A stretch of DNA of 64,000 bases from a virus. Shown one piece after another: positions 1 to 39,299 of the stretch. Under the pieces are notes generated by a model. It was not told the DNA's origin and made no database searches. It saw only the letters and a list, made by a program, of their open reading frames with translations. Location of the stretch: the IMG/VR virus record IMGVR_UViG_3300045988_137804, positions 1-64,000 of that record; one strand, written 5' to 3'. The position numbers and the translations under genes were made by a program. Each line of letters starts with the position of its first letter. The first letter of the stretch is position 1.

Positions 1-68
1 TCAAATTCACAGAAGTTTACCAGTTTCCAATCTTTTTTGAATGAATTTATGCTTTTATCAGTATTCAT
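1..68 (-). CDS. C5 DNA methyltransferase paralog, first 22 codons only (gene runs off the left edge of the window)
   Basis: Minus-strand ATG at 68-66, with AAGGGA 5 nt upstream. It reads MNTDKSINSFKKDWKLVNFCEF. From codon 6 onward it is nucleotide-identical to the 5' end of the plus-strand methyltransferase. Confidence 0.4.
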   Translation of the reverse strand, partial: MNTDKSINSFKKDWKLVNFCEF

Positions 69-238
69 AAAAATCCCTTATTTATAGGGGATTGCGCAAT
101 CTCTTTATTCTAGAATTTACCTGTTTTCACCTTTCTTAATTTTAAAAACTCCTCGCTTTCAAGGCATTTGCAACTACCATGTGAAAGCATAAATTCATTC
201 AAAAAAGATTGGAAACTGGTAAACTTCTGTGAATTTGA
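1..238. repeat. Perfect 55-bp inverted repeat (1-55 vs 184-238) around a 128-bp spacer
   Basis: Bases 1-55 are the exact reverse complement of 184-238. The left arm touches the window edge, so the repeat may be longer. Confidence 0.95.
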
Positions 239-1679
239 TAAGTATGCAACAAAATCATACTGTGCAATTCATGGTGTAGATGAATCATTGAATCTTGGTG
301 ATATTACAAAAGTTGATGAGACAAATCTTGAACAATTTAATATGATTTGTGGAGGTAGCCCGTGTCAGGATTTTTCTGTAGCAGGTAAACAAAAGGGTTC
401 TGTTTGGACTTGTAAAGAATGTGGACATGAATATAATCCATTAACAGTTCATTGGGCTGAACGTGATAAGTGTCCAAATTGCAACAGTGAAAATATTGAA
501 AAGACAAGATCATCATTACTTGTTGAATATTTAAGAGTTATCAGAGCAAATAAACCAAATTTTGGAATTTATGAGAATGTAAAGAACATTGTCGGTAGAC
601 AGTTTAAAGACACAACATTTAAATTGTTTACTGATGAGTTGGAAGAATACGGATATAACGTGTATTGGAAGGTGCTTAATGCAAAGAATTATGGTATTCC
701 ACAAAATAGGGAGCGTGTGTATCTGATTTTTATTAAGAAAGATTTGGATAATGGTAAGTTTAAATTTCCAGAACCATTTGATAATGGTGTTAGATTGAAA
801 GATTTATTGGAAGACGTTGTTGATCAAAAATATTATCTTAGCAAAGAAGTTCAAGATAGATTCAAGCTAACTGATGATACTTTTACAAAAAATATTATTG
901 GCACAACAAAACCAGAGTTTAGAACAATCGGTCAAAGAGATTTGGTATATCAGAAAGATTCCGTAATGGGTGCATTAGTAGCAATAGATTATAAGCAACC
1001 GAAACAGATTTTGGATAATGATATTAAAACAGTTGCAATTCCACAAGCCACCAAAAAAGGTTACATAGAATGTGAAATTGGTGGAGTTGCAGATTTATCA
1101 TATCCAGATTCTAAAACTAGACGTGGAAGAGTACAAGATGGTGGTAATATTTGTCCAACATTAACTGCTACAGAGACAGGTGTATGTAGAATCGAATCTG
1201 TTGAAGACAAGCCTAAAGAAAGATTTTTTAGACAAGCATTAGATACATTTGATGATTCCGATGCAGAATATGGAGATACAATTGATGCATTTAATAAAAG
1301 AGTAAATAAATCGGGCTGTTCACCTACATTAACGACAAGACCAGAAGGGTTTAAAACAGCTATTTTGCCAGTAACAAATAATTTACGAGTAAGAAAATTA
1401 ACTCCGAAAGAATGCTTTAGACTTATGGGATTTTCGGATGAAAATTTCAATGCAGCACATAATGCAGGTATTTCAAATTCGCAGTTGTATAAGCAAGCTG
1501 GAAATTCAATCGTGGTAGATGTTTTATATTACATATTTGTTGAGCTGTATAAAGCCATGCCATATCTTTTTGATGATTTAAAGTTAAGCAGTTTCTTCTC
1601 AGGAATCGGAGCATTTGAAGTGGCATTGGACAGATTATACAAAGGAATTAATTTTGGAAATTTTACAAATTCACATTAA
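168..1679 (+). CDS. DNA (cytosine-5)-methyltransferase with motif I at the C-terminus (circularly permuted) and a zinc-ribbon insert
   Basis: Motif order: FCEFDKYA (II), GGSPCQDFSVAG (IV, catalytic PCQ), ENVKNI (VI), QNRERVYLIF (VIII), LTPKECFRLMGF (IX), AGNSIVVDVL (X), then FFSGIGAFEVAL (motif I, FxGxG) at 1593-1616. TTG start with a weak RBS, so the start is uncertain. Confidence 0.85.
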   Translation: MQLPCESINSFKKDWKLVNFCEFDKYATKSYCAIHGVDESLNLGDITKVDETNLEQFNMICGGSPCQDFSVAGKQKGSVWTCKECGHEYNPLTVHWAERDKCPNCNSENIEKTRSSLLVEYLRVIRANKPNFGIYENVKNIVGRQFKDTTFKLFTDELEEYGYNVYWKVLNAKNYGIPQNRERVYLIFIKKDLDNGKFKFPEPFDNGVRLKDLLEDVVDQKYYLSKEVQDRFKLTDDTFTKNIIGTTKPEFRTIGQRDLVYQKDSVMGALVAIDYKQPKQILDNDIKTVAIPQATKKGYIECEIGGVADLSYPDSKTRRGRVQDGGNICPTLTATETGVCRIESVEDKPKERFFRQALDTFDDSDAEYGDTIDAFNKRVNKSGCSPTLTTRPEGFKTAILPVTNNLRVRKLTPKECFRLMGFSDENFNAAHNAGISNSQLYKQAGNSIVVDVLYYIFVELYKAMPYLFDDLKLSSFFSGIGAFEVALDRLYKGINFGNFTNSH

Positions 1680-1699
1680 GCGAAAGGAACTGTCTATAT

Positions 1700-1993
1700 A
1701 TGGATAATTATTGTCTTAAATATTCAATTTATATTTTTGACGAAGAAGGAAAACTTTATGATTTAGTACATTCTAAATTTGGAATAAAAATAATTATGCA
1801 TACGAAAGAGAAAGGTCATAAAGAACCACATGTGCATGTCAAGTACGAAAATAAAGAAGCAGTGCTAAGTTTGATAGATGGAAGATTTATGAAAGGAAAC
1901 ATACATCCAAACAAAAGGAAATATGCGGAAGAATGGGTAATGAATAACAAAGAGGAACTTCTAAAAAGGTATAAAGAAGTGATTGTTTTATGA
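1700..1993 (+). CDS. DUF4160-like protein
   Basis: HKEPHVHVKYENKEAVLSL...G.IHPNKRKYAEEWVMNNKEELLKRY matches my recollection of the DUF4160 pattern (PPHFHA.Y....G.lp......eW......L...W). Confidence 0.55.
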   Translation: MDNYCLKYSIYIFDEEGKLYDLVHSKFGIKIIMHTKEKGHKEPHVHVKYENKEAVLSLIDGRFMKGNIHPNKRKYAEEWVMNNKEELLKRYKEVIVL

Positions 1994-2247
1994 ATCACAT
2001 AGAGAACACAATAGCTGTAAAATATGAAAACTTTAAGGAGAGAATAAACATTATGACGATTAAATTTATTAAAGATGTTGTCTTCAAAGACCAAAAAGAA
2101 GACAGTGTAAAGATTAAAAAAGGAAAGATTCTCACAGCAAAGGTTGTAAGAAACGAAGATGGTAAGGAAGAATATGAGATTACTCATAGGAAAAATACAT
2201 TCATGATTCCATCTTCTATGAAAGATGTAGTATTTGAGATTTTGTAA
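1990..2247 (+). CDS. hypothetical protein (possible small partner of the DUF4160 gene)
   Basis: ATGA overlap with the upstream gene, same strand. No recognisable motif. Confidence 0.45.
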   Translation: MNHIENTIAVKYENFKERINIMTIKFIKDVVFKDQKEDSVKIKKGKILTAKVVRNEDGKEEYEITHRKNTFMIPSSMKDVVFEIL

Positions 2248-2309
2248 ATTTGTTCAGATTCTTTTGGAGAATAAGTAAGTATACAAATAATGATTGCGAG
2301 GTATATAAA

Positions 2310-2819
2310 ATGCTTAACAAAGAACAAAAGAATCTGGTGGAAGAAAATTATAATCTTACATATAAATATGCAAAAGATCACAAGTTGGATATGGAAGAAT
2401 TCAGTGGATTGCTTTCTATTGGTTTGTGTAAAGCTGCGTTAAATTACGATTCAGATAAAACAAAGTTCTCTACGTTTGCATACAGATGTATGGGAAATGA
2501 AGTAAGTAATTATCTGAGAAAAGTTAATGCAGGTAAATACTTGAGACATGATGAAGTATATTCCATGGAAGCATTGAATGAAAACGAGAATAGAGCTATA
2601 GAAGAGACATTTCTTATGACTTCATCGGAGAATATTGAGATAGACTATATGTTCAAGGCTAAGTTTCAGAAAGAATATGACAAGCTGAAAGACCAGGTTA
2701 AGAACATTGTTGCTCTCAAATATCATGGATACACAAACAATGAAGTTGCAGAAATTATGAATATAAAAGCATCTACTATAAGTATGGCTTTGAAAAAGTT
2801 CAAATATGCGCTGGTATAA
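2310..2819 (+). CDS. phage sigma-70 family (ECF-like) sigma factor
   Basis: Region-2-like segment LLSIGLCKAALNYDSDKTKFSTFAYRCMGNEVSNYLRK and region-4 HTH YTNNEVAEIMNIKASTISMALKKFKY. Start moved to the ATG at 2310, which has GAGGT upstream. Confidence 0.7.
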   Translation: MLNKEQKNLVEENYNLTYKYAKDHKLDMEEFSGLLSIGLCKAALNYDSDKTKFSTFAYRCMGNEVSNYLRKVNAGKYLRHDEVYSMEALNENENRAIEETFLMTSSENIEIDYMFKAKFQKEYDKLKDQVKNIVALKYHGYTNNEVAEIMNIKASTISMALKKFKYALV

Positions 2820-2870
2820 ATGCTATATTATGAGATATATAGATAATATTGTGTGTTGCAATAAATCGTA

Positions 2871-2886
2871 ATACTACATGTAGTAT
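2871..2886. promoter_or_regulatory. perfect 16-bp palindrome ATACTACATGTAGTAT in an intergenic region
   Basis: Self-complementary by eye. TTGCAA lies 10 nt upstream and TATAAA just downstream, so it looks like an operator overlapping a promoter. Confidence 0.4.
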
Positions 2887-2900
2887 ATAAATATATCATC

Positions 2901-2918
2901 ACACACTATATATAGTAT
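2901..2918. promoter_or_regulatory. ACACACTATATATAGT operator-like motif, copy 1
   Basis: 16 nt identical (17 of 18) to the motif at 11947-11964. Followed by TAAAAT at 2919-2924. Confidence 0.4.
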
Positions 2919-2977
2919 TAAAATATAGATGAAATGCGAATTTCATTGGTGGAGAATATATAAGCGGAGGTGATAAC

Positions 2978-3502
2978 GTGGGAACAAATTATTACATGAT
3001 GATGAAGGACAAGGAACTTGCAATGAAGTATTTCGATAATGAGTACGAGCTTACAGATACTCCGTATTTTGGCTATGAAGTACATATCATGAAACTGAGT
3101 TATGGTTGGAAACCTTTATTTGAGTGGCATGGGAATGCGTATAAATCAGTAGAAGATATGCTAAAGTTCTTGGAATTTCATAGAATGGATATTGATATTT
3201 TTGACGAATATAATCGAGAATATACCATTGAAGAATTAAAAGAAGAGTTCGTAAGTCATAAAAATGTAAAACCAAGATATATGAAACATATTCCAGAAGG
3301 CATTCCGAATCATACATTTGGTGGTAGAGATTATTTAGCTGAGTCCACTGAGGATGATTATGACATTAAAATGCCATATGACCATGTAGAGTATCATAAA
3401 TTAGATCCTTACAATGAAAAAAGATGGATAGATGAAAGTAGAGAGCCATTATATTTTCACGATAAGGATGGTTATGATTTTACGAAAGGATGGTTCGAAT
3501 AA
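2978..3502 (+). CDS. hypothetical protein
   Basis: GTG start 6 nt after GGAGGTG. 174-aa ORF with no recognised motif. Confidence 0.6.
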   Translation: MGTNYYMMMKDKELAMKYFDNEYELTDTPYFGYEVHIMKLSYGWKPLFEWHGNAYKSVEDMLKFLEFHRMDIDIFDEYNREYTIEELKEEFVSHKNVKPRYMKHIPEGIPNHTFGGRDYLAESTEDDYDIKMPYDHVEYHKLDPYNEKRWIDESREPLYFHDKDGYDFTKGWFE

Positions 3503-3612
3503 TGAATAAACCAACATTATGGGTTATGGTTGGCTTGTCTGGAAGTGGTAAATCAAGTGTTGCAAAAGAAATCGCAGAGAATAATCCTAAGAAGGAGATG
3601 AATAACAAATAA
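3502..3612 (+). pseudogene. P-loop kinase remnant (Walker A only, 36 codons)
   Basis: MNKPTLWVMVGLSGSGKSSVAKEIAENNP then a stop. Looks like the N-terminus of an AAA_33/polynucleotide-kinase-type protein, truncated at the edge of the homing-endonuclease insert. Confidence 0.5.
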
Positions 3613-4477
3613 CAAAAAGAAAAATTTATTGTGGAATATATATGATACGCAATAAAATAAACGATAAAAAATATATAGGTCAAAGTATAGATATATGGTA
3701 TAGATATAGAAATCATTTGAGTGAATCATATAATGTAAACAAAAAAGCTTACAATATGGCAATTCATAAGGCGATAAGAAAATATGGTAAAAGTAATTTT
3801 GAATTAATTGTTTTAGAAGAATGTCCAAAAGAAAAATTAAATGAACGAGAAATTTATTGGATAGAATATTACGATACATACAATGATGGTTACAATCAAA
3901 CAATTGGTGGGGATACATTAAAAAATACAATTGATAGAGCAAATATATATATCGTCTGTGGGATGAAGGAAAATCTATTAAAGACATTCGTGAAATAACT
4001 AAGCATGGAAAACATCAAATTATTCGTATTTTAGAAGGTTATGATAAATATTCACCTGAAGAAAGCAAGAGAAGAGGATTTTCGTCTGCTTCAAAGACTA
4101 GGGGCAAAACTGTGTATAGATATCAAATGAATGGTGAATATATAGATGAATTTTGGTCAATTGCTGAAGCCGGAAGAAAAACAGGAACAAGAAATACAGA
4201 TATAAGTTTATGCTTAAATGGTTCTCAACAATCTGCAAATAATTATAGATGGAGTTTTGAGAAAAAAGATAATATCGGAGAATACAAAGCGGAGATGGCA
4301 AACAAAAAGAAAGCAGTTATAAAATATGATGAGGACAATAATTTTATTGAAGAATTTGCATCAATTACAGATGCGGCGAAATCAGTAGGGCTAAAAGGTT
4401 TATCTGGAATAATAAAATCATGTGAAAAAGATGTTTTGTGCAAAGGGTATAAGTGGAAATATAAATATCAAATCTAA
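3606..4477 (+). mobile_element. GIY-YIG homing endonuclease with NUMOD/IENR1-type DNA-binding repeats; frameshifted, no canonical start (probably decaying)
   Basis: The GIY motif (YCGIYMIRNKINDKKYIGQS) starts upstream of the first ATG (3642). The catalytic frame ends at 3998. The HTH and NUMOD-like part (LWDEGKSIKDIREI..., VYRYQMNGEYIDEFWSIAEAGRKTG..., VIKYDEDNNFIEEFASITDAAKSVG...) continues in another frame that opens after the stop at 3935-3937. The shift falls in the AAATATATATAT run near 3941-3952. Confidence 0.7.
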
Positions 4478-4561
4478 GGAACGTTGGAAGAAAAGGTTTG
4501 GAGAATATAAATATCAGATGCTTTTGGATTTTCATGAATGTGATAAAGTGAGGTGAGATAC

Positions 4562-4909
4562 ATGAGATGTAATACAGATTTGGAGACTTGGCTGCATGAT
4601 TTCGAAGACGATATATTCCGTATCTTAGTTTACAGAAAGCCTGGTCAGTATACTCCATACGAAGTGGAGAATAAGTTTAGTGATGAGTCTTTATATGTAG
4701 ACAATGAATACAAGAAAGTATTTATTGAAGACGTAATTGAACTACCGGACAAAGATGTTCTGATTGGATTTAGAGAAGTTCTTGATGTGAATCAAAATAA
4801 AGACGGAGAATATGAATGTGAGTTGGCAGATAGCATTGAATATTATAAGCTTTCTGAAATTAAACTGGAATGTTTTAAATGTGATCAAGTGATTGGAGGT
4901 GAGTTCTAA
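4562..4909 (+). CDS. hypothetical protein
   Basis: ATG at 4562, 6 nt after GAGGTGAG. No motif recognised. Confidence 0.55.
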   Translation: MRCNTDLETWLHDFEDDIFRILVYRKPGQYTPYEVENKFSDESLYVDNEYKKVFIEDVIELPDKDVLIGFREVLDVNQNKDGEYECELADSIEYYKLSEIKLECFKCDQVIGGEF

Positions 4910-5169
4910 TGGATATTTTCCAAAACATTGTATTGATCTTCATGGGAGTATTGCTCTTAGGAATTTTGGTTGCATTTTCAATCCTATTAGAGAAGTTCAT
5001 GGAGCTGTCAGACGAAGTACATAAGAAACTCTTTGAAATGTCAGTAGAGAATAATACAAATGTAGATGATGGATTCATTCTTGGAGATGAGTTCTTGACA
5101 GAAGACGAATTGACAAATGAAAGCGATGAAGATTCAAGAGAAGAATTCGGAATTTATTCTGAACGATAA
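4909..5169 (+). CDS. small membrane protein with acidic tail
   Basis: One hydrophobic helix (IVLIFMGVLLLGILVAFSILL) followed by a D/E-rich C-terminus. GGAGG RBS. Confidence 0.55.
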   Translation: MDIFQNIVLIFMGVLLLGILVAFSILLEKFMELSDEVHKKLFEMSVENNTNVDDGFILGDEFLTEDELTNESDEDSREEFGIYSER

Positions 5170-5384
5170 AAGAGTAATAGTATTATGGTTATACGTCAGA
5201 TATGAGGACAAATTCTTGCCGTAATCGTTCAAGATTAACAATTGGATACTGAAAAATAAAGAACTGAATTTGCTCTATGTATATATCAAATAGTAAGCAA
5301 TATATGATGTATTTTTGGACTTAAATTAGCTTAATTAAACTAACTAATTTTTGTATAAATATTTAAAAAAGAGGAGAAAGAAAA

Positions 5385-6965
5385 ATGGTAAATGAGATTA
5401 TTAATGGACTTGGTGTTTTAGTTCCTGTAGTGATTGTAGGAGCAGGTGGAATTGGAATTGTTGGTTCTGGATATGTAAAAGCATCGCCAGATAAAGCCTA
5501 TATCATTTCTGGTTTAAGAAAAGATCCAAAAGTTCTTATTGGAAAAGCTGGGCTTAAGATTCCATTCTTTGAAAAGAAAGACGAGCTAAATCTTCAGTTA
5601 ATTCCAATTGATGTAAAAACATCAAGTGCAGTTCCAACAGCAGATTACATCAACATTAACGTTGATGCAGCAGTAAACGTAAAGGTAAGTAGCGACACAG
5701 AAAGACTTAAACTTGCAGCAGAGAACTTTCTTAATAAACCAACTGACTACATTGGACAGGTTGCAAGAGAAGTTCTTGAGGGTAATATGCGTGAGATTGT
5801 TGGCAAAATGAACTTGGAAGAAATGGTTTCCGATCGTCAGAAGTTTGCAGAACTCGTAAAAGAAAATGCCGAACCAGATCTTGCTGCAATGGGACTCGAC
5901 ATTGTGAGCTTCAATGTACAGAATTTTGTTGATGAAAATGGAGTAATTGAAAATCTTGGTGTTGACAACATTGTTAAAATTCAGAAAAATGCAGCTATTT
6001 CAAGAGCTGATAGCGAAAAAGAAATTGCCAAGGCTCGTGCTATGGCTAAAAAAGAAGCGAATGATGCAGAGGTAACTTCTGAATTGGAAATTGCAAATGC
6101 TCAGGCTGAAGCACAGAAGAAGAAAGCAATTGTACAGGCTAACGCAGATAGAGAGTCAAGAGAAGCTCAAATTGCAGCAGACACACTTATTGCACAGAAA
6201 GAAAATGAACTTGAAATTAAAAAAGCAGAACTTCAGAAAGATGCTGATACGAAAAAGGCTTCAGCAGATGCAGCTTATAGTATTCAGGAAGAAAATGAAA
6301 GAAAATCTGTGGAGATTGCTACGGCAGATGCTAATCTTGCTAAACAGGAAAAAGCTGTGGAGATTAAAGAGAAAGAGATTGCACTCACAGAAAAAACTCT
6401 TGAAGCTACTGTAAAGAAACAGGCTGAAGCAGAAAAATATGCAAAACAGCAGGAAGCAGATGCAAGACTGTATGAAACACAGAGAAAATCAGAAGCAAAT
6501 CTTTTTGAGAGACAGAAAAATGCTGAAGCAGAGAAGTTTGAACGTGAGAAAGAAGCTGAAGCTATGAAAGCAACAGCAGAAGCTAACAAATATGCTATGG
6601 AACAGGAAGCAGAAGGTATTCGTAGTAAAGGACAGGCTGAAGCCGATGCAATCAAAGCAAAAGCTCTTGCAGAAGCAGAAGGTATTCAGAAGAAAGCAGA
6701 AGCAATGAAACAGATGGGTGAAGCAGCAGTTCTTGATATGTATTTCAAAGCTATGCCAGAAATCGCCAAGAATATCGCAGAACCTCTTGCCAAAGTTGAC
6801 AAAATTACAATGTATGGAGATGGAAACTCTTCAAAATTGATGAAAGATATCATGAACACTCTTAATCAGGTTACAGATGGTATGAAAGAGTCAACTGGAA
6901 TCGACTTAAATTCTATTCTTGCAGGTTTTGCAGGTGCTAAAATTGCTGAATCTACAGACAAATAA
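5385..6965 (+). CDS. flotillin-like SPFH (band-7) domain protein
   Basis: N-terminal TM segment, an SPFH core (YIISGLRKDPKVLIGKAGLKIPFFEKKDELNLQLIPIDV...MGLDIVSFNVQNF), then a long A/E/K-rich coiled coil as in FloT/YqiK. Strong RBS AGAGGAGAAAG. Confidence 0.85.
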   Translation: MVNEIINGLGVLVPVVIVGAGGIGIVGSGYVKASPDKAYIISGLRKDPKVLIGKAGLKIPFFEKKDELNLQLIPIDVKTSSAVPTADYININVDAAVNVKVSSDTERLKLAAENFLNKPTDYIGQVAREVLEGNMREIVGKMNLEEMVSDRQKFAELVKENAEPDLAAMGLDIVSFNVQNFVDENGVIENLGVDNIVKIQKNAAISRADSEKEIAKARAMAKKEANDAEVTSELEIANAQAEAQKKKAIVQANADRESREAQIAADTLIAQKENELEIKKAELQKDADTKKASADAAYSIQEENERKSVEIATADANLAKQEKAVEIKEKEIALTEKTLEATVKKQAEAEKYAKQQEADARLYETQRKSEANLFERQKNAEAEKFEREKEAEAMKATAEANKYAMEQEAEGIRSKGQAEADAIKAKALAEAEGIQKKAEAMKQMGEAAVLDMYFKAMPEIAKNIAEPLAKVDKITMYGDGNSSKLMKDIMNTLNQVTDGMKESTGIDLNSILAGFAGAKIAESTDK

Positions 6966-7040
6966 TCTGTACATAGTTTAATTTTACACATTCCAACTTT
7001 GCATAGTGTCACAGCTATGCAGAGTATTTCTAAAAATAAT

Positions 7041-7535
7041 ATGAGAGGAAGTGATTGTGTGGTTAATTTAGAACCACGGATGATGCAAAAAGTACAAAAG
7101 TGTTTAGAAACACATGTTGGTGGTGAAGCATATTTTAATGAATTAGACGCTGCGATTAAATCAGATGAAAATCTTTTGAAGTCTTTCATTAATCGCATTG
7201 TCATAGAAACGAAGTGTCGCAACTTTGTAATGTCAGGTGAAATTGGTGTTGTATATTCTAAATTATATTCATACGATGACATTCATTTGTTGTTGCTGCC
7301 AGGTGGCTTGAGACACGATAAAGAAATTCCTTATGACATTGGGAGAATATATGAAGGAATGGAATTTGTATTCGTAGACGATTCATATTACTCAGGAAAA
7401 ACTTTGAATGCTGTGAAGAAATATATGGAATCTACTGGTGCAAAAATCATTGCAAATTATGTTTTCTACGATGGTAGCAGAGAAAATAAAGATAATGTGA
7501 GATCAATTTACAGATATTATGATCATCACGAATAA
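7041..7535 (+). CDS. phosphoribosyltransferase-like protein (start uncertain; GTG at 7059 also possible)
   Basis: PRPP-binding-type motif FVFVDDSYYSGKTL. Confidence 0.5.
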   Translation: MRGSDCVVNLEPRMMQKVQKCLETHVGGEAYFNELDAAIKSDENLLKSFINRIVIETKCRNFVMSGEIGVVYSKLYSYDDIHLLLLPGGLRHDKEIPYDIGRIYEGMEFVFVDDSYYSGKTLNAVKKYMESTGAKIIANYVFYDGSRENKDNVRSIYRYYDHHE

Positions 7536-7549
7536 GGAGAATAACATAT

Positions 7550-7747
7550 ATGGGAAGAAAATTCAGATGGTTGGATGCAATCAGGACAATGAATGTAAAT
7601 GATCTTGCACCATATTTAATAAAGGAATGTTTCAATTTTCATGATGGAACATGGTGGTCATCTCCAAGTGGTAATAAATTTGATTATCATGATGATGCTC
7701 TTGAAGATTGTATTCGGTGGTTAAATTCTAAATATGATGGGAGATAA
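7550..7747 (+). CDS. hypothetical protein
   Basis: AAGGAGAATA RBS, 65-aa ORF. Confidence 0.5.
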   Translation: MGRKFRWLDAIRTMNVNDLAPYLIKECFNFHDGTWWSSPSGNKFDYHDDALEDCIRWLNSKYDGR

Positions 7748-7755
7748 TAATTATT

Positions 7756-8127
7756 ATGGGATGGTATGAAGAGTACAAGACTGATGAATATATAAAAAGT
7801 CTCCAGTCTGTAGTAGAAGGATTAAAAACAAAAGATAAGACAATTAATTCACTACAAGAAGAGAATAATAGATTGAGAGATGAACATTACAAGGATGGAG
7901 AGTTAAAGAAATTGCAAGAAAAAATTGATAAGTTGCAAGGCGACTGTAATAGAGGATTTCCAATTAGTTTCAATGAGCAAGAAGTGATTGATGAATTTCG
8001 AGAAGAACACAAGAAGGAATGTCCTCATTGTAGCTTCAAATACATATTTGAGCCTTATTCGATTGTTGAGTTTGGATATCTAAAATGCAATGTTTGTGGT
8101 GAAGAAATAAAATTTGCAGAACGGTGA
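7756..8127 (+). CDS. hypothetical coiled-coil protein with C-terminal CxxC...CxxC zinc ribbon
   Basis: CPHC ... CNVC pair at the C-terminus. Heptad-like N-terminal half. Confidence 0.5.
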   Translation: MGWYEEYKTDEYIKSLQSVVEGLKTKDKTINSLQEENNRLRDEHYKDGELKKLQEKIDKLQGDCNRGFPISFNEQEVIDEFREEHKKECPHCSFKYIFEPYSIVEFGYLKCNVCGEEIKFAER

Positions 8128-8169
8128 TGGAGAATAAGTAATTAAAGGTTATAGAAAGGAGTTTGTGAA

Positions 8170-8592
8170 ATGAGATTTTCTGAAGCAATCGAACATCTTC
8201 TTAACGGAGAACGCATAAAGGAAGCGTGTTGGGAAAATGGTTATTACATCAAGCTGGAAAACGACAAAATTGTGGATTGTGATGGATCAGCAGAAGTGTT
8301 CGATAGTAAAGACATTATATCTAACGATTGGGAGCTATATCAGCCTAAATTAGATGTAGGTGCGGTTATTCAATACAATGACGGTACAATCGGAATTGTG
8401 CTTAGTTTATCTGAACTAGATAAGGAATACATCATTTTAGATGAGAATTGGTGCGTAGAAACAGTGAATGAAAGCCAGGTTTCATTAATCAATATTGACT
8501 ATGGAAAAGTTAGTTTGCATGAAGATTCTGCGAGTAAAAATCTCAAAAGTATAGTTTTATCATTACAGATGATTTCAGAGTTAGTAAATTAA
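8170..8592 (+). CDS. DUF2829-like protein (family that, to my recollection, includes the Thoeris anti-defence protein Tad2)
   Basis: N-terminus MRFSEAIEHLLNGERIKEACWENGYYIKL fits the remembered DUF2829 start (M.F.eAl.al..G..v.R..W). The C-terminal half is unassigned. Confidence 0.4.
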   Translation: MRFSEAIEHLLNGERIKEACWENGYYIKLENDKIVDCDGSAEVFDSKDIISNDWELYQPKLDVGAVIQYNDGTIGIVLSLSELDKEYIILDENWCVETVNESQVSLINIDYGKVSLHEDSASKNLKSIVLSLQMISELVN

Positions 8593-8666
8593 TGATTTTA
8601 TCCACTACGAAGTGGAGAATAAATAAGTATAAAGTTTAAGTTTCAAAGATTAAAGGAGAAAACATT

Positions 8667-9311
8667 ATGAGTACAATTGAGAAAATGAGTGTTCACAAAG
8701 CATTAGCAGAGTTAAAGATTATTGATTCCAGAATTGAGAGATCAATTGATGATGCACAGTTCTGTGTAGCAAACAAACATTCTAATGAAAAGATTAATGG
8801 TATTCCGGTTGAGGACGCTAAGAAGTTAATGGTTGGAAGTTACGACAAAGCATCAGATCTTATTAAGAGAAGAAATGCAATCAAGAGAGCAGTTGTGCTT
8901 TCTAATGCTAAGACAATTGTTACGATTGCAGACAGAGAATATACTGTTGCAGAAGCAATTGAGATGAAAAATCATGGCATTGAGTTTGAGGAATTTCTTT
9001 TAAATGAAATGAGATGTCAATACGCAGATGCTAATAGAACTATCTCAGCAGAGAATGGCGAAAAACTGAGTGAAAGAGCAGATAAATTTGTCATTGACAT
9101 GTATGGATCAAAAGAGGGTAAAACAAATACTGCTGATTTTGAGAAAGCAAAGAAAGATTTTATCACAGCAAATTCTTATGACTTGGTTGATCCACTTGAT
9201 ATCAAGAAGAAGATTGATGAATTGGAAGAATATATCTCAAACTTCAAGACAGAAGTAGATGCTGCATTAAGTGTTAGCAATGCTATTACAGAAACTACTG
9301 TAGAGTATTAG
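8667..9311 (+). CDS. hypothetical protein
   Basis: AAAGGAG RBS, 214-aa ORF, no motif recognised. Confidence 0.6.
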   Translation: MSTIEKMSVHKALAELKIIDSRIERSIDDAQFCVANKHSNEKINGIPVEDAKKLMVGSYDKASDLIKRRNAIKRAVVLSNAKTIVTIADREYTVAEAIEMKNHGIEFEEFLLNEMRCQYADANRTISAENGEKLSERADKFVIDMYGSKEGKTNTADFEKAKKDFITANSYDLVDPLDIKKKIDELEEYISNFKTEVDAALSVSNAITETTVEY

Positions 9312-9507
9312 AGAATATATAAATAGGAAATTATTTCACTGTTTGCTGAAAACTTAGAACTACAATCATTCAGACTTTTGCAAGTATAGCCTGAATCAAA
9401 ATAATAAAGAAGCTTGCAACATAATAAAACATAAAAAGCAAGTATAGCAAATTATTACAGGAATGCTTGATGCACAGTGTTGAGCGTTTATAAATTACAA
9501 GATGACT

Positions 9508-9594
9508 GTAAAGAGTAAAGTTCAAATGTCAAGTAGTAAAGCTCAAAATTCAAAGATTATTTTTTATGTAAAGTTTAAGCAGTAAATAGTAAAG
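9508..9594. repeat. five GTAAAG-centred degenerate direct repeats (iteron-like)
   Basis: GTAAAG at 9508, 9515, 9536, 9568 and 9589, with similar flanks (AGTAAAGTTCAAATGTCAA / AGTAAAGCTCAAAATTCAA). Lies inside a 430-nt ORF-free stretch. Confidence 0.5.
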
Positions 9595-9744
9595 ATATAA
9601 AGTTTTATAAAATCTTCGACAAACAGTTTTCAGTATGATTGTACTTGGCTGTAAGTTGTCTGCGAAGCTAGTAAATGGTGAATTAATTAATAAATGTCAA
9701 CCTACATAATAATATGCATAGTTGTCGTGAGGGTTGGCAAATAT

Positions 9745-9833
9745 GGATCATTACATCAACTGGTAAGATGAGCTGCCTCATAAGCAGAAAGCCCTAATAA
9801 GGTATAAACTGGGTTCGACTCCCAGATGATCCA
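9745..9833 (+). tRNA. tRNA-like gene, anticodon CAU, unusually long (20-nt) variable region
   Basis: Acceptor GGATCAT/ATGATCC, D arm CATC-AACTGGTAA-GATG, anticodon loop CTCATAA, T arm CTGGG-TTCGACT-CCCAG. 89 nt, no encoded CCA. Confidence 0.55.
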
Positions 9834-9968
9834 CTGTATCTGAATATTCACAGAATGTGTTATTCGTTTCCTTTCTTTCTATGAACATTCTAGTTCAGAT
9901 ACAATGTTTTTCATAACTTCCTTTTGTTTGGTTGGCAACTTACCATATAGACAAAAAAGTTGCAATAA

Positions 9969-10039
9969 TGGGCTGTGGTGTAATGGTAGCACATAATACT
10001 TTGACTATTATAGATCCAGTTCAAATCTGGACAGCCTAG
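9969..10039 (+). tRNA. tRNA-Gln (UUG)
   Basis: Canonical cloverleaf: TGGGCTG/CAGCCTA acceptor with U1-A72 as in bacterial tRNA-Gln, anticodon arm TAATA-CTTTGAC-TATTA, T arm TCCAG-TTCAAAT-CTGGA. Confidence 0.85.
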
Positions 10040-10124
10040 CTTGTGAGATTTTGGAACGTCTCACAAATATTACTCCTTTCATGGGTTATTTATAGTGCAA
10101 AAGATGTGCAGAAATGCACATCGA

Positions 10125-10210
10125 GCTGGCATGGCGGAATTGGTAGACGCAATGGACTTAAAATCCATCGGTAAAAACACACCATACGAGTTCGAGTCTC
10201 GTTGCCAGTA
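10125..10210 (+). tRNA. tRNA-Leu (UAA)
   Basis: Type II tRNA: D arm GCGGAATTGGTAGACGC, anticodon arm ATGGA-CTTAAAA-TCCAT, long variable arm, T arm ACGAG-TTCGAGT-CTCGT. An 8-bp GAAA-tetraloop hairpin (10103-10122) lies immediately upstream. Confidence 0.8.
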
Positions 10211-10367
10211 TTAGCCATATGAGACACTTATTCCCTGAGCAAGAATGATGAAGTCGGTACAAAAGTGCTCAATTTCTGTATTTTACATTCGTGTGTTATG
10301 CAAGCAGCACGAATGACATATGGCATTAACCCCCAACATAGGGTATTTACATTTTACAAAAATGGTT

Positions 10368-10437
10368 TGGCTGTTAGTTCAGTGGGAAGAACATCTATTG
10401 CAAGAGAGGGTCACAGGTTCGAGTCCTGTACAGTCAA
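10368..10437 (+). tRNA. tRNA-like gene with a non-canonical anticodon arm (possible GCA/Cys)
   Basis: Good acceptor (TGGCTGT/ACAGTCA), D arm (GTTC-AGTGGGAA-GAAC) and T arm (ACAGG-TTCGAGT-CCTGT). The anticodon region folds only as a 3-bp stem TCT/AGA with an 8-nt loop ATTGCAAG. Confidence 0.4.
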
Positions 10438-10505
10438 CTTGACGCAGAAAACATTTGATTTTTGCATTCATGTTTTGCACGCCTCATTTCTTCAATGTGC
10501 AAAGT

Positions 10506-10627
10506 AGATTGTTAGTTCATTGGTAGAATATCTTATTGAAAAATAATGTAATCCTGTTCTTTTCGCTTTCTTAACGATGTGATGCATTATTAATAGGAAG
10601 AAACACGTTCGAATCGTGTGCAATCTA
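10506..10627 (+). tRNA. tRNA-like gene (possible GAA/Phe) with a roughly 51-nt insertion in the anticodon loop
   Basis: Acceptor AGATTGT/GCAATCT, D arm GTTC-ATTGGTA-GAAT, T arm ACACG-TTCGAAT-CGTGT. The anticodon stem TCTTA (10531-35) / TAGGA (10594-98) encloses 58 nt instead of 7. Confidence 0.4.
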
Positions 10628-10714
10628 TCAGTCTTGGTTGACTTACCACTTTCAAACGAGGACTTTAAATTCGGTAGTAAAGTGGAGAATAATAATCATA
10701 GGTGGTGAAAAATT

Positions 10715-11056
10715 ATGAGATGTCCGTATTGTGACAAAGAAATGATTAAGAAGTACAAGATTAAGCACTTCTGTAATTTCGATGATCCGTGTGACTCATG
10801 GGAAAAAGAAATACATATCTGTAAGAAGTGTGGTATCAAGAAAGTAGATGGCAAGTGGAAGATTCCACATAAGTACAGAAGACCATCAACTAATCAGATT
10901 CGCAGATGCAAGACTTTAGCTAAGATACACGACATAGATTTTGAGCCACTTCTTGCCAGACAATGCAAGAGATTCATCACAACAATGCTGAAAAAGTTAT
11001 ATGTTCAGGATCATTATTGTGATGGAGAACTCCATATCATTGGAGAGAATAAATAA
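10715..11056 (+). CDS. hypothetical zinc-ribbon protein
   Basis: CPYC ... CKKC pairs. GGTGGTG RBS. Confidence 0.55.
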   Translation: MRCPYCDKEMIKKYKIKHFCNFDDPCDSWEKEIHICKKCGIKKVDGKWKIPHKYRRPSTNQIRRCKTLAKIHDIDFEPLLARQCKRFITTMLKKLYVQDHYCDGELHIIGENK

Positions 11057-11074
11057 GAAAAGGAGATAAGAAAC

Positions 11075-11314
11075 ATGACAAGAGAAGAAAGAATGCAGAA
11101 AAGAAGAGACGCAGGTAAGGTTTATACTTACAAGAAAAATCCTTACGAGAAAGGAACTAAAGAGTGGGTTAAGGAAGAATGTGCGAGAGCAGAGAAAAGA
11201 AAATCCAAGAAACCACATTACGCTAAGATGACTTCTGTGTTTGCCAAGTTAGATAATGAGCTTGCAAAGGCTGAACTTGCTGCAAAGAAGAAGTCTAAAA
11301 AAGAGGGTAAGTAA
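11075..11314 (+). CDS. small basic hypothetical protein
   Basis: AAAGGAG RBS. K/R/E-rich 79-aa ORF. Confidence 0.5.
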   Translation: MTREERMQKRRDAGKVYTYKKNPYEKGTKEWVKEECARAEKRKSKKPHYAKMTSVFAKLDNELAKAELAAKKKSKKEGK

Positions 11315-11551
11315 ATGAGAGAAACTTTATTTTGGATTACCATTATCGTTGGAATCGGACTTGGTATTTACACTGGTGGTTGGTTGTTATTTATTAAACC
11401 GATTATTGTTGCATGTGCTGCATATGACGCAGGGACACTTACAGGAAGTATGATTGGATGGACAATTATCAAATGTTTGGTGTTTGCACCAATTGTTGCA
11501 AGAGTAATTATAAATGTTACACTTACGATTGCAGGAGATATTTTGGATTAA
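11315..11551 (+). CDS. small membrane protein (2-3 TM helices)
   Basis: Hydrophobic throughout (FWITIIVGIGLGIYTGGWLLFIKPIIVACAAY...). Start follows the upstream stop directly. Confidence 0.55.
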   Translation: MRETLFWITIIVGIGLGIYTGGWLLFIKPIIVACAAYDAGTLTGSMIGWTIIKCLVFAPIVARVIINVTLTIAGDILD

Positions 11552-11572
11552 TTTCAATAGGAGAACAAACCA

Positions 11573-11848
11573 ATGATAGAGATTATCGAAACTAATCTTG
11601 CTATAGATGAGAATAAAGATATTAGAGATCATCAGTCTAGAGTAGTTCTTGCAGATGATTGGGAGTCTTATTGCGAAGCATATGAAAAGTATGACGGATC
11701 AAGAGTGACATTTCCATCAAAGAGTCCTGGTGCTAGTATCTATGAAGACAGTAAAATAGAAGATTTAGAATATGACGAGTATCATTTGCATTGCAGAATT
11801 AATAAAGTATATTTTACAGATACAAGATTGGCATACAAAATCAGTTAA
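11573..11848 (+). CDS. hypothetical protein
   Basis: TAGGAG RBS, 91-aa ORF. Confidence 0.5.
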   Translation: MIEIIETNLAIDENKDIRDHQSRVVLADDWESYCEAYEKYDGSRVTFPSKSPGASIYEDSKIEDLEYDEYHLHCRINKVYFTDTRLAYKIS

Positions 11849-11943
11849 TCACTTTTGAGCAATTCGCTCACAATTTCAAATCAAAATTGAATAGAGAATA
11901 TAAATTTAGAGGTTGCACAGCGTACCTTTGGTTTCTTGTAAAA

Positions 11944-11972
11944 TTGACACACTATATATAGTGTTTATAAAT
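11944..11972 (+). promoter_or_regulatory. sigma-A-type promoter with a palindromic operator in the spacer
   Basis: TTGACA (11944-49), 16-17 nt spacer, TATAAA/ATAAAT (11966-72). The spacer holds the perfect 16-bp palindrome ACACTATATATAGTGT (11949-11964) and precedes the highly expressed-looking gene at 12134. Confidence 0.55.
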
Positions 11973-12133
11973 AATATAAATACAATATATTGACATAAAA
12001 ACACCATAAAATCGCTGTTTCATATAGATTTTTGCATAAATTTATTTTTGTGTTCCGTCCGGTTGGGCGTTTAGATAGATTGTTTTATTAACAATATTTA
12101 CATAAATTTTTTATTTTTAAGGAGGATTTTCTG

Positions 12134-29793: not shown

Positions 29794-29997
29794 ATGATAG
29801 AAACTATGATCGTATTTTTTCTATTTCTATTTATAAATTCATTTGTAATTTCTATATTCTTTTCAGGAATTAGTGGTCTATCATTATGTAGGCGTATATT
29901 ATATTCCTTATTACTTGCTTTAGTACTTTCCGGTTTATTAACATTTTCAACTTTAGCTGTTTACTTTATAGATACAGGAGTGAATTTATTAATATGA
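29794..29997 (+). CDS. small membrane protein
   Basis: Two hydrophobic helices. AAGGAG RBS. Confidence 0.5.
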   Translation: MIETMIVFFLFLFINSFVISIFFSGISGLSLCRRILYSLLLALVLSGLLTFSTLAVYFIDTGVNLLI

Positions 29998-30545
29998 TTT
30001 ATGTATTACTTGGCAAAACAGCCAGTGGTAAGGACACCATAGCTTCAAAACTGGCTAAAAAAGGACTTAAACGGGTTGTAACTTACACAACCCGTCCACC
30101 AAGAAAAGGTGAAAAAGATGGCGAGAATTATCATTTTATCACTAACGATGAATTTGAAGGATTGATTCAAAGCGGATTTTTCGCAGAGTGGAGGTCTTAC
30201 GACACTGTAGATGGTGTTTGGTATTATGGATCGTCAATAGATAGCTATGATACAGATGAAGATAGAATTATAATTTTGAACCCTGATGGGTTTCATCAAA
30301 TCAAAAAAATCTTAGAACCTGAAAAGGTCAAATCAATTTATGTATATTCAAACATAAAAACAATCAGAAATAGATTAAAAAAACGTGGAGACAAGAAAGA
30401 AGAAGCTGAAAGACGTATTGAACACGACTTAATTGACTTCAAAGGTCTTGAAAATGAAGTAGATAAGATTATGTATAACAACGAAGATGATAATCTCGAT
30501 GACGTAGTTCAAAAAATTCTTTCTTATATAACAGAGAATAAGTAA
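29994..30545 (+). CDS. gmk: guanylate kinase-like nucleotide kinase
   Basis: P-loop GKTASGKDT and the Gmk signature TTRPPRKGEKDGENYHF. Confidence 0.8.
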   Translation: MIYVLLGKTASGKDTIASKLAKKGLKRVVTYTTRPPRKGEKDGENYHFITNDEFEGLIQSGFFAEWRSYDTVDGVWYYGSSIDSYDTDEDRIIILNPDGFHQIKKILEPEKVKSIYVYSNIKTIRNRLKKRGDKKEEAERRIEHDLIDFKGLENEVDKIMYNNEDDNLDDVVQKILSYITENK

Positions 30546-30561
30546 GTGGAGGATTAGTTAA

Positions 30562-32385: not shown

Positions 32386-35300
32386 ATGGTAAGAGTTATT
32401 AAAAGAGATTGCTCTGAAGTTGATTTTGATAAGAATAAAATTTCAACGGCAATCTTAAAGGCTATGAAAAATGGTAGCGGAATTGTTAAACCCAAAATTG
32501 CGGAATCTATTGCAGATGAGATTGAAAAGGAATGTAAGGATCGAGAAGAGATTGATATTTCTGAAATTGAAGCAATGGTATTTGACAAGCTGATTACCAA
32601 AAAACAGAGACTTACTGCAAGAGCATATGAAGGTTATAGAAGTACAAGAGAATTCCAGAGAGAGAATGAGAATACTGTTGACGAGGAAATTCTTGGAATT
32701 GTAGAAGCAAACAACGAAGAATGGAAAGATGAAAATGCGAATAAAAATCCAGCATTAAACCCTACAATTCGTGATTATATTGCTGGATCTGTAAGTAAAG
32801 ACGCAACAAAAAGATTTTTATTATCTCCAGAAATTATTCAGAGTCATTTAGAAGGAATTATTCATTTCCATGATTCAGATTACTTTATTCAACATATGCA
32901 TAACTGCGGATTAGTAAATCTTGAAGATATGCTTCAGAATGGTACTGTTATTAGTGAAACAATGATTGAAAAGCCACATAGTTTTTCTACAGCATGTACC
33001 GTGACTACTCAGATCATTGCTCAAGTTGCATCTAGTCAGTATGGTGGACAGAGTATCTCACTTGCACATCTGGCACCGTTTGTGGATGTTTCCAGAGAGA
33101 AGATCCGTAAGGAAGTGATCAGCGAGCAGGAACTGGTCGGAATGGAATATCCGGAAGATGTGCTCAATGAGATCGTAGAGAGAAGACTGAAAAAAGAGAT
33201 TACAAAAGGTGTTCAAACAATTCAGTACCAGTTAATCACACTTATGACAACAAATGGGCAAGCACCGTTCATCACAATTTTTATGTATCTGAATGAAGCA
33301 AAGAATGAGAGAGAAAAGAAAGACCTAGCGATGTTAATTGAAGAAATGTTACTTCAGAGAAAACTTGGTGTGAAAAATGAAGATGGTGTTTATATTGCAC
33401 CAGCATTTCCAAAACTCATTTATGTTCTTGAGGATGACAATTGTAACGAATCAACAGAATATTGGTATTTAACAGAACTTGCTGCCGAATGCACGTCAAA
33501 AAGATTAGTTCCAGATTACATCTCTGAAAAAGTAATGAAAGAACTTAAAGGTGATGTGTATACATGCATGGGATGTGTTGATGGAAAAGAACTTGTTACA
33601 TATACATATAACAATAATCTTTACGTTGAATCATTTGAAAGAATGTGGAATAGACTTTCTGATAGATTTGAAATAAAACATCAGTATAATGACAACAACC
33701 CAAATCTATATATGGATTTGAGCGATGTAGAAATCTATGACACAGACAAAGGATTTGTTAATACAGAGAGAATAATCAGAAATATATCAACCTCTTGGCT
33801 TGATGTTAATTTTTCCAACGGAAGAAGATTACTTTGTACAGAAGATCACCCACTTACATTAAGAGATGGAAGAACAATCCATGCATCTGAATTAAAATTA
33901 AAGGATAGAATTCTCATTAATTCACATCAGTATAATGAAGAAAATATTGTATTCAATGAAGACAAGGCGTGGTTGTTAGGTTTTATGCTTTGTGATGGAT
34001 GTTATCAAGGCTCTTTATTTTCTTCAATTGCAGCAGAAAATGAAGATGAAATTGCAGATAAGTTTTCAGAAACAATGAAGAAATATTTTGATCTCGATAT
34101 TGAAAAAAAATTACAGCAAAGAGGTAAGAAAGGAACATATTACGATTTGATTGCACATAGTCAGAATGAAAAAATATCTGTGTATTGTAATTATTTCGCT
34201 AAAAAATTCGAAGGTCTGAATAAGATTGATAGACATGTTCCTAATGAAGTATTTTCATGGAATTATTCGTCAAAACTTGCTTTCCTGGCAGGAATGATTG
34301 ATGCAGATGGGTACATTAATAGTTCTCAGAATAAAGGATTTTCTATAGTTCAAATTGGTTCTACAAACAAAGAACTTGCATTACAACAAATGGCACTTGC
34401 ACAGTCTTTAGGTATGCCAGCAAAGCTGTACCATAACCATTACAGTAAACGTAACCCAGAATTGATTAGATACAGAGTTGAGTTTTATCCAACAGATGAA
34501 CTAATTAATTATATTGTATGTAAAAAGAAATATGATAATTATATTGATTCAAATGTATCTAGTTATAATCATGAATCTGAAGTTACTGAAATCAACAAAA
34601 TTAATAAAAAAATGTTTTCTTACGATGTAACAACAACAAGTGAGCATTTTGAAATTAGCGGAATCTATAGTCATAATTGTAGGTCTTTTTTAACTGTTGA
34701 TAGATTTTCTGATAAAGTTGGAAACATTTCTAACGCTAAAAACTTTAATGGAAAACATAAATATTACGGAAGATTTAATCAGGGTGTTGTTACAATTAAT
34801 CTTCCAGATATTGCATTTTCATCTGATGGCGACATGGATAAGTTTTGGGGAATTTTCGAAGAAAGAACAGAATTATGCCATAAGGCTTTAAAGGCTAGAC
34901 ATAACCGTTTGCTTAAAACTTCTTCTGATATTGCACCAATCCTGTGGCAGAACGGAGCATATGCAAGACTTAAAAAACATGAACCAATTGACAAACTTTT
35001 ATTTGATGGATATTCAACGATTTCTCTTGGATATGCAGGACTTTATGAGTGTGTGAAATATATGACAGGAAAATCCCATACAGATGGTGATGTAGGAGAA
35101 AAGTTTGGATTGGAAGTAATGCAAGCATTAAATGATAAATGTAATCAGTGGAAAGAAGCTGAAAACATTGATTATAGTTTGTATGGCAGCCCAATCGAAA
35201 GCACTACGTATAAATTTGCAAAGTGCTTAAAAAATAGATTCGGTGATGATATTTTTATTAAACTTGATGGATTTGATAGAAATTATATTACAAATAGTTA

Positions 35301-38855: not shown

Positions 38856-38871
38856 ACACATGTAATAATTA

Positions 38872-38899: not shown

Positions 38900-38905
38900 G
38901 ATACT

Positions 38906-39240: not shown

Positions 39241-39299
39241 AACGCAAAAATTATTTGCCCCAAAAGTGCAAAATTAGATTACACAATGACATAGAGAAT

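Follow-up and report, generated by a model that had tools for sequence, protein, structure and literature searches.

The promoters read by sigma-H in B. subtilis follow the consensus RnAGGAwWW-N11-12-RnnGAATww. Among promoters that depend on phage-encoded factors, those of SPO1 gp28 read AGGAGA-N17-TTTNTTT, those of phiEco32 gp36 read TAATGTATA, and the late promoters of T4, which require gp55, read TATAAATA. In C. difficile, SigH promoters have the form AGGA-N17-GAAT, with -10 elements such as GTAGAATAT and transcription starts 7-9 nucleotides (nt) after GAAT (PMC7438776), and promoters of the streptococcal ComX (SigX), which carry the CIN-box TACGAATA, may lie within ~21 nt of the start codon (PMC6224593). 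T4-like phages also carry PeSLs, which are composites of a stem-loop terminator and a sigma-70 early promoter (PMC2839356, PMC4122927). The element described here is the heptamer GAGAATA, with its extended flanks, in a 64,000-nt stretch of phage DNA (positions 1 to 64,000 of the IMG/VR virus record IMGVR_UViG_3300045988_137804, hereafter the window). Judged by sequence comparison, the GAGAATA signal is real, family-wide and under selection, and we give an even chance to the reading that it is a phage-family-specific, orientation-dependent expression signal, best understood as a -10-only promoter of the GAATA type. What is new is the occurrence of a signal of a known promoter-like kind in a new family of uncultured gut phages; a literature search for GAGAATA as a phage promoter gave no relevant hit.

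The window is part of a large tailed phage with a low GC content (~32%). Genes on the plus strand extend to 44.3 kb and include small accessory genes, a sigma factor, tRNAs and a set for replication and nucleotide metabolism (DNA polymerase III alpha, a RecD-like helicase, an NAD-dependent ligase and NrdD with an intein), and from 44.4 kb the minus strand carries an endolysin and tail and fibre genes. The early region is common to six IMG/VR contigs of 100-176 kb whose sigma factors are 82-91% identical. Pooled statistics refer to more than 40 related metagenomic contigs (~600 kb) and site classes to the non-redundant sites of 44 related loci.

In a k-mer scan, GAGAATA was the top over-represented sense-strand 7-mer of the early/middle plus-strand block (42 observed vs 10 expected, z=10), and it was not enriched in the late block. 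Each of six close relatives has the same heptamer as top or near-top 7-mer, with 30-42 copies per 20 kb vs 0-1 on the other strand, and so do most of 13 further contigs tested from other metagenomes and a contig whose sigma factor is only 61% identical. In the pooled relatives, 990 copies were observed against 197 expected, and every single-mismatch variant stood at or under expectation, which means that all seven bases are required; one sharp heptamer without enriched variants is typical of -10-only promoters, in which a single short box holds all the specificity. No GAGAATA excess was seen in a Firmicutes phage whose sigma factor is 30% identical, where Shine-Dalgarno (SD) words topped the list.

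Longer versions of the element were counted as well. The degenerate 14-mer GGAGAATAWDTAAK matches the window 4 times (0.04 expected), GGAGAATA matches it 19 times, every one on the plus strand (2.55 expected), and all 7 occurrences of the 12-mer GAGAATAWDTAA are in non-coding sequence or run over a stop codon. When IMG/VR was scanned with the 14-mer, the hits were mostly chance matches, useful only after a filter on strand-biased heptamer density. A weight matrix built from the relatives only reached at least 12 bits at 30 plus-strand sites of the window and at none on the minus strand, with ~2 such sites in shuffles. A preliminary description of this DNA had named, as the result that would count against the element, a motif no commoner between genes than within them. 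This is not what the window shows: heptamer density falls from 2.49/kb in non-coding to 0.76/kb in coding sequence, and the non-coding segments hold 11 copies vs 0.99 +/- 0.98 in shuffles. Coding sequence is itself enriched in early (13 observed vs 2.2 expected) and middle genes (16 vs 4.9) and not in late ones (1 vs 1.5), and the excess extends to long conserved genes, such as those for DNA polymerase III alpha and NrdD.

Sites were divided by defining an orphan as a copy with no start codon of an open reading frame (ORF) of at least 40 codons within 3-13 nt. The nine copies in the preliminary description (2266, 2951, 4500, 8129, 8614 and 10684, with variants at 9311, 11042 and 11894) are all present as written, and a full copy at 30534 can be added to them. 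The copies in the window, with weight-matrix scores in bits, are:

2265-2283, plus strand: orphan copy TGGAGAATAAGTAAGTATA, 44 nt before the start of the sigma gene, whose real SD is GAGGT, ~31 nt past the core.
2951-2964, plus strand: orphan copy GGAGAATATATAAG; the SD GGAGGTG begins 1 nt later and a GTG start lies at 2978.
4500-4513, plus strand: weaker copy GGAGAATATAAATA (12.4 bits), without TAA at 9-11, conserved in relatives L001-L006; gene start at 4553/4562.
7536-7549, plus strand: copy GGAGAATAACATAT of the ribosome-binding-site (RBS) class, directly before the ATG at 7550.
8129-8142, plus strand: orphan copy GGAGAATAAGTAAT, 1 nt past the stop of 7756-8127.
8614-8631, plus strand: orphan copy GGAGAATAAATAAGTATA, the top score (19.4 bits); SD 37 nt downstream, start at 8667.
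9311-9327, plus strand: copy GAGAATATATAAATAGG (18.6 bits), overlapping the TAG stop of 8667-9311 and 24 nt before the RAGATH-27 RNA.
10684-10697, plus strand: copy GGAGAATAATAATC, after the tRNA cluster, without TAA at 9-11; the SD AGGTGGTG begins at motif position 16 and the start codon lies at 10715.
11045-11057, plus strand: copy GAGAATAAATAAG (14.9 bits), forming the last codons (E-N-K-stop) of 10715-11056; SD AAAGGAG, start at 11075.
11894-11906, plus strand: copy GAGAATATAAATT (17.4 bits), after which come TTAGAGGT and a small hairpin that has a T-rich tail.
30534-30546, plus strand: full copy GAGAATAAGTAAG (18.9 bits), spanning the stop of 29994-30545; the SD GGAGG begins 2 nt later and a TTG start lies at 30562.
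2040, 26231, 27324 and 30757 (first base of GAGAATA), plus strand: further copies of the RBS class.

All the copies in this list other than those of the RBS class count as orphans, the one at 4500 being weaker. Seven of the nine copies first described lie 27-62 nt before a start codon that has its own RBS, nearly the 27-60 nt originally given, and the other two, at 9311 and 11894, precede non-coding sequence. The arrangement of motif, TTAGAGGT and hairpin recurs in L071 (1745), L061 (1614) and L127 (13259).

The two classes differ in the base before the core. In the RBS class (79 sites) it is G in 71%, which gives GGAG, and the start codon is placed at the normal spacing for this phage (GAG-N9-ATG is the mode, 32 of 74); the GGAGAATA-N5-ATG copies are ordinary ribosome-binding sites, and GGAGAATA is a plain RBS at 2040, 7536, 26230, 27323 and 30756. 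In the orphans (133 non-redundant sites) the same base is A in 67%, so that no GGAG is formed. The recurrent element first described therefore stands, with GAGAATA and not GGAG as its conserved core, and the statement that its copies are not simply SD sites is true of the orphans and fails for the GGAGAATA-N5-ATG class, as well as for the copy at 8129, which is an RBS in relatives. The orphan consensus is (A/G)GAGAATA-W-D-TAA-G-T-R-R. T predominates at -2 and A at -5 to -3; downstream come W at 7, TAA at 9-11 in about half of the sites, T at 13 (62%) and purines at 14-17 (>80%). No position upstream of -5 was informative, either in 32 sites or in the 133 non-redundant sites, and there is thus no -35-like box; a weak G-G-A at -21 to -19 lies 3 nt too far upstream for the sigma-H -35 AGGA, which is expected ~17 nt before GAAT.

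No orphan core overlaps a real SD. Among the 133 orphans, 80 have an SD-like 5-mer within ~63 nt, and the first of these starts at 14-17 in 39 sites, further downstream in 35 and before 14 in 6. The remaining 53 have none in that span, and ~70% of all orphans lack one at 14-17. A terminator-like hairpin was found upstream of only 1 of the 133. The exact 17-mer TACGAAGTGGAGAATAA is present, as first described, at 8606-8622 and inside a coding sequence at 4658-4674, and the repeat AAGTGGAGAATAA recurs one base later than given, at 10680 instead of 10679. The 4658 copy is coding (P-Y-E-V-E-N-K-F) and differs in relatives; it was set aside as a coincidence or local conversion. An argument from a hybrid copy at 8614 was dropped as well, since it turns on a single base.

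The gene for a sigma factor had been noticed in the preliminary description, and both Pfam and NCBIfam confirm a member of the sigma-70 family:

2310-2819, plus strand: sigma-70-family factor of 169 amino acids, with regions 2 and 4 only.

Pfam assigned Sigma70_r2 (E=3e-7) plus r4_2, and NCBIfam placed the protein in the sigma70-ECF superfamily, a generic family only (62.5 bits vs a cut-off of 42.9). The closest solved structure is 3mzy, whose chain is named 'sigma-H factor' (E=7e-7). Upstream of the gene, the block TCTTTTGGAGAATAAGTA is invariant in 8 genomes, including L173, whose sigma factor is 61% identical. The leader of L173 has diverged outside this block, which is its only invariant part, and the retention of TCTTTTGGAGAATAAGTA in a diverged leader points to purifying selection on the sigma-upstream copy. 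The protein coded by 2310-2819 is a candidate reader of GAGAATA, by a circumstantial link.

The copy at 9311 heads a structured RNA rather than a gene:

9335-9418, plus strand: RAGATH-27 candidate small RNA (sRNA; RF03100), Rfam score 80.2 bits vs a gathering score of 76.1.

A cluster of four tRNAs follows, and the tRNA at 10368-10438 has an anticodon that ARAGORN did not name. In diverged phages found through the 5' sequence of RAGATH-27, GAGAATA lies 22-24 nt before the RNA. Three variant loci read aatGAATAatt (L128), agcGAATAgtt (L129) and ttGATAgtt (L164) at this place, so that a deeper core, GAATA, is kept in L128 (ATGAATA) and L129 (GCGAATA) and only GATA in L164 (TTGATA). A copy in front of a non-coding RNA excludes a purely translational role for the element. 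The same region (9495-9600) contains, between RAGATH-27 and tRNA-Met, five GTAAAG and one GTAAAT in ~90 nt, which resemble the leader of gene 8667 (8630-8655).

From the enrichment, the restriction to one strand and to the early/middle block, and the placement before SDs and RNAs, we infer promoter action at the DNA level, and the following scheme is conditional on it. GAGAAT(A) would be a -10-like element with the same GAAT(A) core as promoters of sigma-H and of ComX/SigX, and W-D-TAA would be its discriminator. A start 7-9 nt past the T of GAAT would fall 13-15 nt from the first G, which is where orphans turn purine-rich and real SDs begin. Transcription would then start at the conserved purines (G/A-T-R-R), 12-15 nt from the first G, and the mRNA would begin just before the gene's own SD, or ~10 nt before the RAGATH-27 sRNA. 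No -35 element would be used, and the holoenzyme would probably contain the 169-amino-acid factor of the phage, whose gene, lying behind its own motif copy, could be under positive feedback. The GGAGAATA-N5-ATG copies may double as ribosome-binding sites or simply be such sites. As first proposed, a phage-specific promoter is the best-supported reading (sense strand only, 5' edges of cassettes, selection, early and middle genes only), and the link to the sigma factor in that proposal is circumstantial.

The comparison with sigma-H is favourable in the -10 region, since (A/G)-G-A-GAAT-A-W fits RnnGAATww and the +12 to +15 purines lie where a start would be expected from C. difficile, whose mapped starts are 7-9 nt past GAAT; it fails upstream, where AGGA is absent at the required spacing. 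With the CIN-box the element shares a short, near-invariant -10 box without an evident -35, the GAATA core, a place that can be close to the start codon (within ~21 nt in CIN-box promoters) and, as proposed here, a small (~160 amino acids) alternative sigma factor as reader, and the L129 variant before RAGATH-27 reads tagCGAATAg. The box here is nevertheless (A/G)GAGAATA and not TACGAATA, it has a conserved TAAGT-purine tail and the factor is phage-encoded; the CIN-box-like GCGAATA is not enriched (36 observed vs 33 expected). NCBIfam places the phage factor only in a generic superfamily.

T4 late promoters and those of other phage sigma factors are alike in that a phage sigma, as proposed here, directs the polymerase of the host to a short and highly conserved box specific to one class of genes; they also have short leaders, and upstream genes contain many of the copies or end just before them. 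The sequences are unrelated: a resemblance of the A/T-rich half to TATAAATA had been suggested, but only two of the nine copies (4500 and 9311) contain that word, and the second half of the consensus is W-D-TAAG. The motif also marks early and middle genes, and its presumed factor has canonical regions 2 and 4, unlike gp55. Two other layouts were tried and rejected. Taking the A/T-rich second half as the -10 would put the start within or after the SD in dozens of sites, and in an SPO1-type layout (GGAGA as -35 with a T-rich -10) nothing is conserved 17-18 nt downstream.

Several points weigh against a promoter. Region 4 of sigma factors normally reads the -35 element, yet none is conserved, and the family assignment of the factor (sigma70-ECF superfamily) is not specifically sigma-H or ComX. 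Since the sigma gene lies behind a motif copy, another form of polymerase must make the first sigma. About 30 copies lie within coding sequences, 3-5x over expectation, and would be internal promoters; about one third of the non-coding copies are ordinary RBSs at normal spacing. No terminator stands before the copies, save at 1 of 133, and additional promoters are therefore not a strict necessity. The reverse complement was counted in an attempt to tell DNA-level from RNA-level action, the first version of which was biased by the choice of loci; it is mildly under-represented, without clear avoidance (15 observed vs 19-28 expected). In L003 and L006 the 8129 copy is the RBS of a gene for 86 amino acids that is missing in the window, where sequence homologous to its 3' end survives at 8145-8169, and this remnant implies that the copy was orphaned by deletion; the window, L001 and L002 nonetheless share the consensus form GAGAATAAGTAAT there. 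Finally, the sequence evidence fits a transcription start and an RNA processing site alike.

RNA processing had been offered from the beginning as the alternative to a promoter and remains a serious rival, which we consider possible though unlikely. The heptamer would act in the mRNA, either as the site where an endoribonuclease of phage or host cuts polycistronic early and middle messages, before each SD and before sRNA and tRNA precursors, or as the operator of an RNA-binding translational regulator near the RBS. T4 RegB is an endoribonuclease whose sites are GGAG in early SD sequences, and a nuclease of this kind would time the decay of early messages as RegB does. Both signals are SD-like words enriched in early messages, absent from late ones, and placed in or near the RBS, and a decay signal would explain at least as well as a promoter, and more naturally, why the excess within coding sequence is confined to early and middle genes. 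Restriction to the sense strand, the lack of clear avoidance of the antisense orientation, overlap with the SD in the RBS class and its position abutting the SD (14-17 nt) in 39 orphans all fit action in RNA, as do its placement before the sRNA and tRNA cluster, where 5' processing is expected, and the absence of terminators between cassettes, which makes long precursors likely. The likeness to RegB ends with the target, for the conservation does not lie in GGAG (67% of orphans have A at -1) and seven bases are required. Among 30 window proteins searched against Pfam, 20 of which were compared with PHROGs too, no RegB-like protein and no nuclease family was recognised, nor was an RNA-binding protein among the early ones scanned. 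A translational operator would be pointless at the ~70% of orphans that lack an SD at 14-17, and the GAAT(A) core with 7-9 nt to conserved purines fits a known class of promoter.

The motif also coincides with edges of mosaicism. In BLAST comparisons of the window with relatives, homology blocks have an edge at 2952/2966, 7536, 8145-8148, 8615 and 10684. For L005 and L002 the blocks start at 2952 and 2966, which bound a single copy, and the edges at 8145-8148 come directly after a copy; homology with L001, L002, L003 and L006 begins exactly at 8615, and a block with L005 ends at 10684. A 350-nt insertion with a motif copy on either side is present in L001, L002, L003 and L006, where the window has a single copy. 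Rfam, applied to the insertions of L001 (17250-17422) and L003 (17569-17741), the two that were scanned, identified the FuFi-1 RNA (RF02986) on the strand opposite to the early genes; the strand of FuFi-1 is set by its 3' terminator (PMC5737381). In such alignments the motif heads cassettes and is a place where they are exchanged, and its 13-18 nt header sequence would double as a short homology patch for cassette gain, loss and swap. PeSLs are similar in being short regulatory repeats that border small variable ORFs of plastic regions, with indels and replacements between close relatives beginning or ending at the repeats; they differ in having a stem-loop terminator, which accompanies the motif at 1 of 133 sites, and a sigma-70 box, which this one does not resemble.

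A rather unlikely extension of these observations is that the element serves as a multi-purpose cassette header, in which a homology patch is combined with a promoter or with a decay site for early messages whose 7-nt specificity would be new. It is equally tentative that anti-defence genes, small ORFs and structured non-coding RNAs (RAGATH-27, the FuFi-1 cassette) are shuffled between genomes behind such headers. The motif-headed cassettes may include anti-defence genes. At 8170-8592 the window has a weak match to a Tad2-like (anti-Thoeris) domain, under the Pfam cut-off (E=1.3e-4).

Mosaicism bears also on the idea that the element has no dedicated function, in which GGAGAATA(A) is a preferred RBS plus spacer and the orphans are RBS relics kept as recombination joints. 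This seems to us improbable. The RBS class is indeed large and sharply spaced (GAG-N9-ATG in 32 of 74), breakpoints coincide with the motif, two copies flank the insertion in relatives where the window has one, and the loss of the 86-amino-acid gene makes the idea true of at least one copy, at 8129. The orphans are set apart from the RBS copies by A instead of G at -1 and by an extended TAAGT-purine tail, and AATA is unable to pair with the anti-Shine-Dalgarno sequence, yet all seven bases are required. Relics should also decay, but the sigma-upstream copy is invariant within a diverged leader; orphans are tightly coupled in position to the next SD, one of them precedes a non-coding RNA, and the heptamer is enriched within long conserved genes.

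A polar DNA signal co-oriented with the early and middle genes, either a Chi-like attenuator of nucleases or a mark of replication or packaging orientation, is very unlikely. Polar words have the signature of a sharp heptamer, here ~5-fold over-represented, on nearly one strand only and in coding and non-coding sequence alike, but GAGAATA is 3x denser in non-coding sequence, its extended form occurs only at gene boundaries, its geometry to the SD and the sRNA is fixed and its enrichment ends at the boundary between early/middle and late genes; known Chi sequences are G-rich. Hardly credible is a mini-ORF of four codons (NTG-GAG-AAT-AAR-TAA, Met-Glu-Asn-Lys-stop) for translational coupling or a leader peptide, suggested by the window copies at 2263, 2948, 8126 and 8611, which read TTG/GTG/ATG-GAG-AAT-A(A/T)N-TAA and of which the ATG at 8126 overlaps the upstream TGA, since the pooled sites contradict it: A before GAG in 67% of the 133 leaves no NTG start, no SD precedes the putative starts, and the corresponding letters at 11045 and 30534 encode, in that frame, the C-terminus of a real gene.

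Large intergenic regions contain sigma-A-like TTGACA-N16-TATAAA promoters that overlap a perfect palindrome, ACACTATATATAGTGT (2903 and 11951), and sequence of this promoter and palindrome is shared by the window segments 2846-2927, 9467-9495 and 11944-11973. A similar promoter and palindrome precede the sigma gene in a more distant phage without heptamer excess; the arrangement is seen in L175, a distant phage contig with a 50%-identical sigma factor. The palindrome-overlapped promoter is probably an operator-controlled early promoter, and the arrangement suggests a two-tier programme, with an early tier under host sigma and a GAGAATA tier. A scan for the sigma-70 consensus found 53 sites vs 62 in shuffles.

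Other observations concern the phage itself. Megablast of window positions 1-12000 against GenBank phages gave no match, protein searches for cultured relatives gave only 30-38% relatives and none close, and the sigma gene had no match among GTDB species-representative genomes; strong SDs and 32% GC suggest a Clostridia-like Firmicutes host. Further assemblies with this sigma gene measure 258-781 kb. In L177 (GCA_027695685.1 JAQEUG010000001.1, 780,962 bp) the early region lies mid-contig, and other contigs with this sigma gene are 258-332 kb long. The size of the phage may far exceed the 100-176 kb of the IMG/VR contigs; alternatively, it may be integrated or mis-assembled.

A perfect 55-nt inverted repeat (arms 1-55 and 184-238, around 128 nt) lies directly upstream of, or overlaps, the start of a C5 DNA methyltransferase gene that extends to 1679; the 1-238 region aligns in inverted orientation in relatives, and it may act as a phase-variable switch by inversion or else form a large hairpin. 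At 3502-4477 a P-loop kinase-like gene is truncated at 3612 and followed by ORFs 3642-3998 and 4112-4477, the first with GIY-YIG-like features by sequence reading alone, without a family-library scan; L177 and similar relatives have an intact KTI12/AAA_33-type gene of 296 amino acids there, and the segment is probably a homing-endonuclease insertion common to L002. NrdD, the anaerobic ribonucleotide reductase (32386-35730), has an intein with a LAGLIDADG homing endonuclease inside. A Tn7-like module occupies 38856-44318, with a TnsB-like transposase (Mu-transposase C-terminal domain), TniB and TniQ, and is preceded by a 606-nt non-coding stretch in which the words TTCCCAAAAA / TTTTTGGGAA recur and which carries a sigma-A-like TTGACA-N17-TAAAAT promoter. 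GAGAATA is absent from the module, in keeping with a recent origin from a foreign source. On the minus strand, a run of 19 A (52612-52630) separates two lectin-like tail-fibre genes, and the word CCCCCCC occurs 4 times on the sense strand of the late block, although these occurrences may overlap in one longer C run; the A and C runs are possible slippage or phase-variation tracts. L175 carries two CRISPR-like arrays (1-337 and 2208-2624, with ~36-nt repeats) that flank a TnpB/Cas12f-like gene.

For the annotation of these genomes, GGAGAATA should be treated with care, since it resembles an SD and often is none. A repeated regulatory box that drives cassette exchange would extend this behaviour outside the T4 group; if the cassette header exists, it would correspond, in a phage of Firmicutes, to the PeSLs of T4, though based on a pair of sigma and box unrelated to theirs, and if its action is in RNA, it would be a RegB-like system of temporal shut-off with a novel target. 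If GAGAATA is a promoter, it would offer a compact (~14 nt) orthogonal pair of promoter and sigma factor for Clostridia-type hosts, early and middle transcription units, sRNA genes and accessory cassettes, such as anti-defence ones, could be annotated from sequence, and an abundant, uncultured family of large human-gut phages would have its first regulatory handle.

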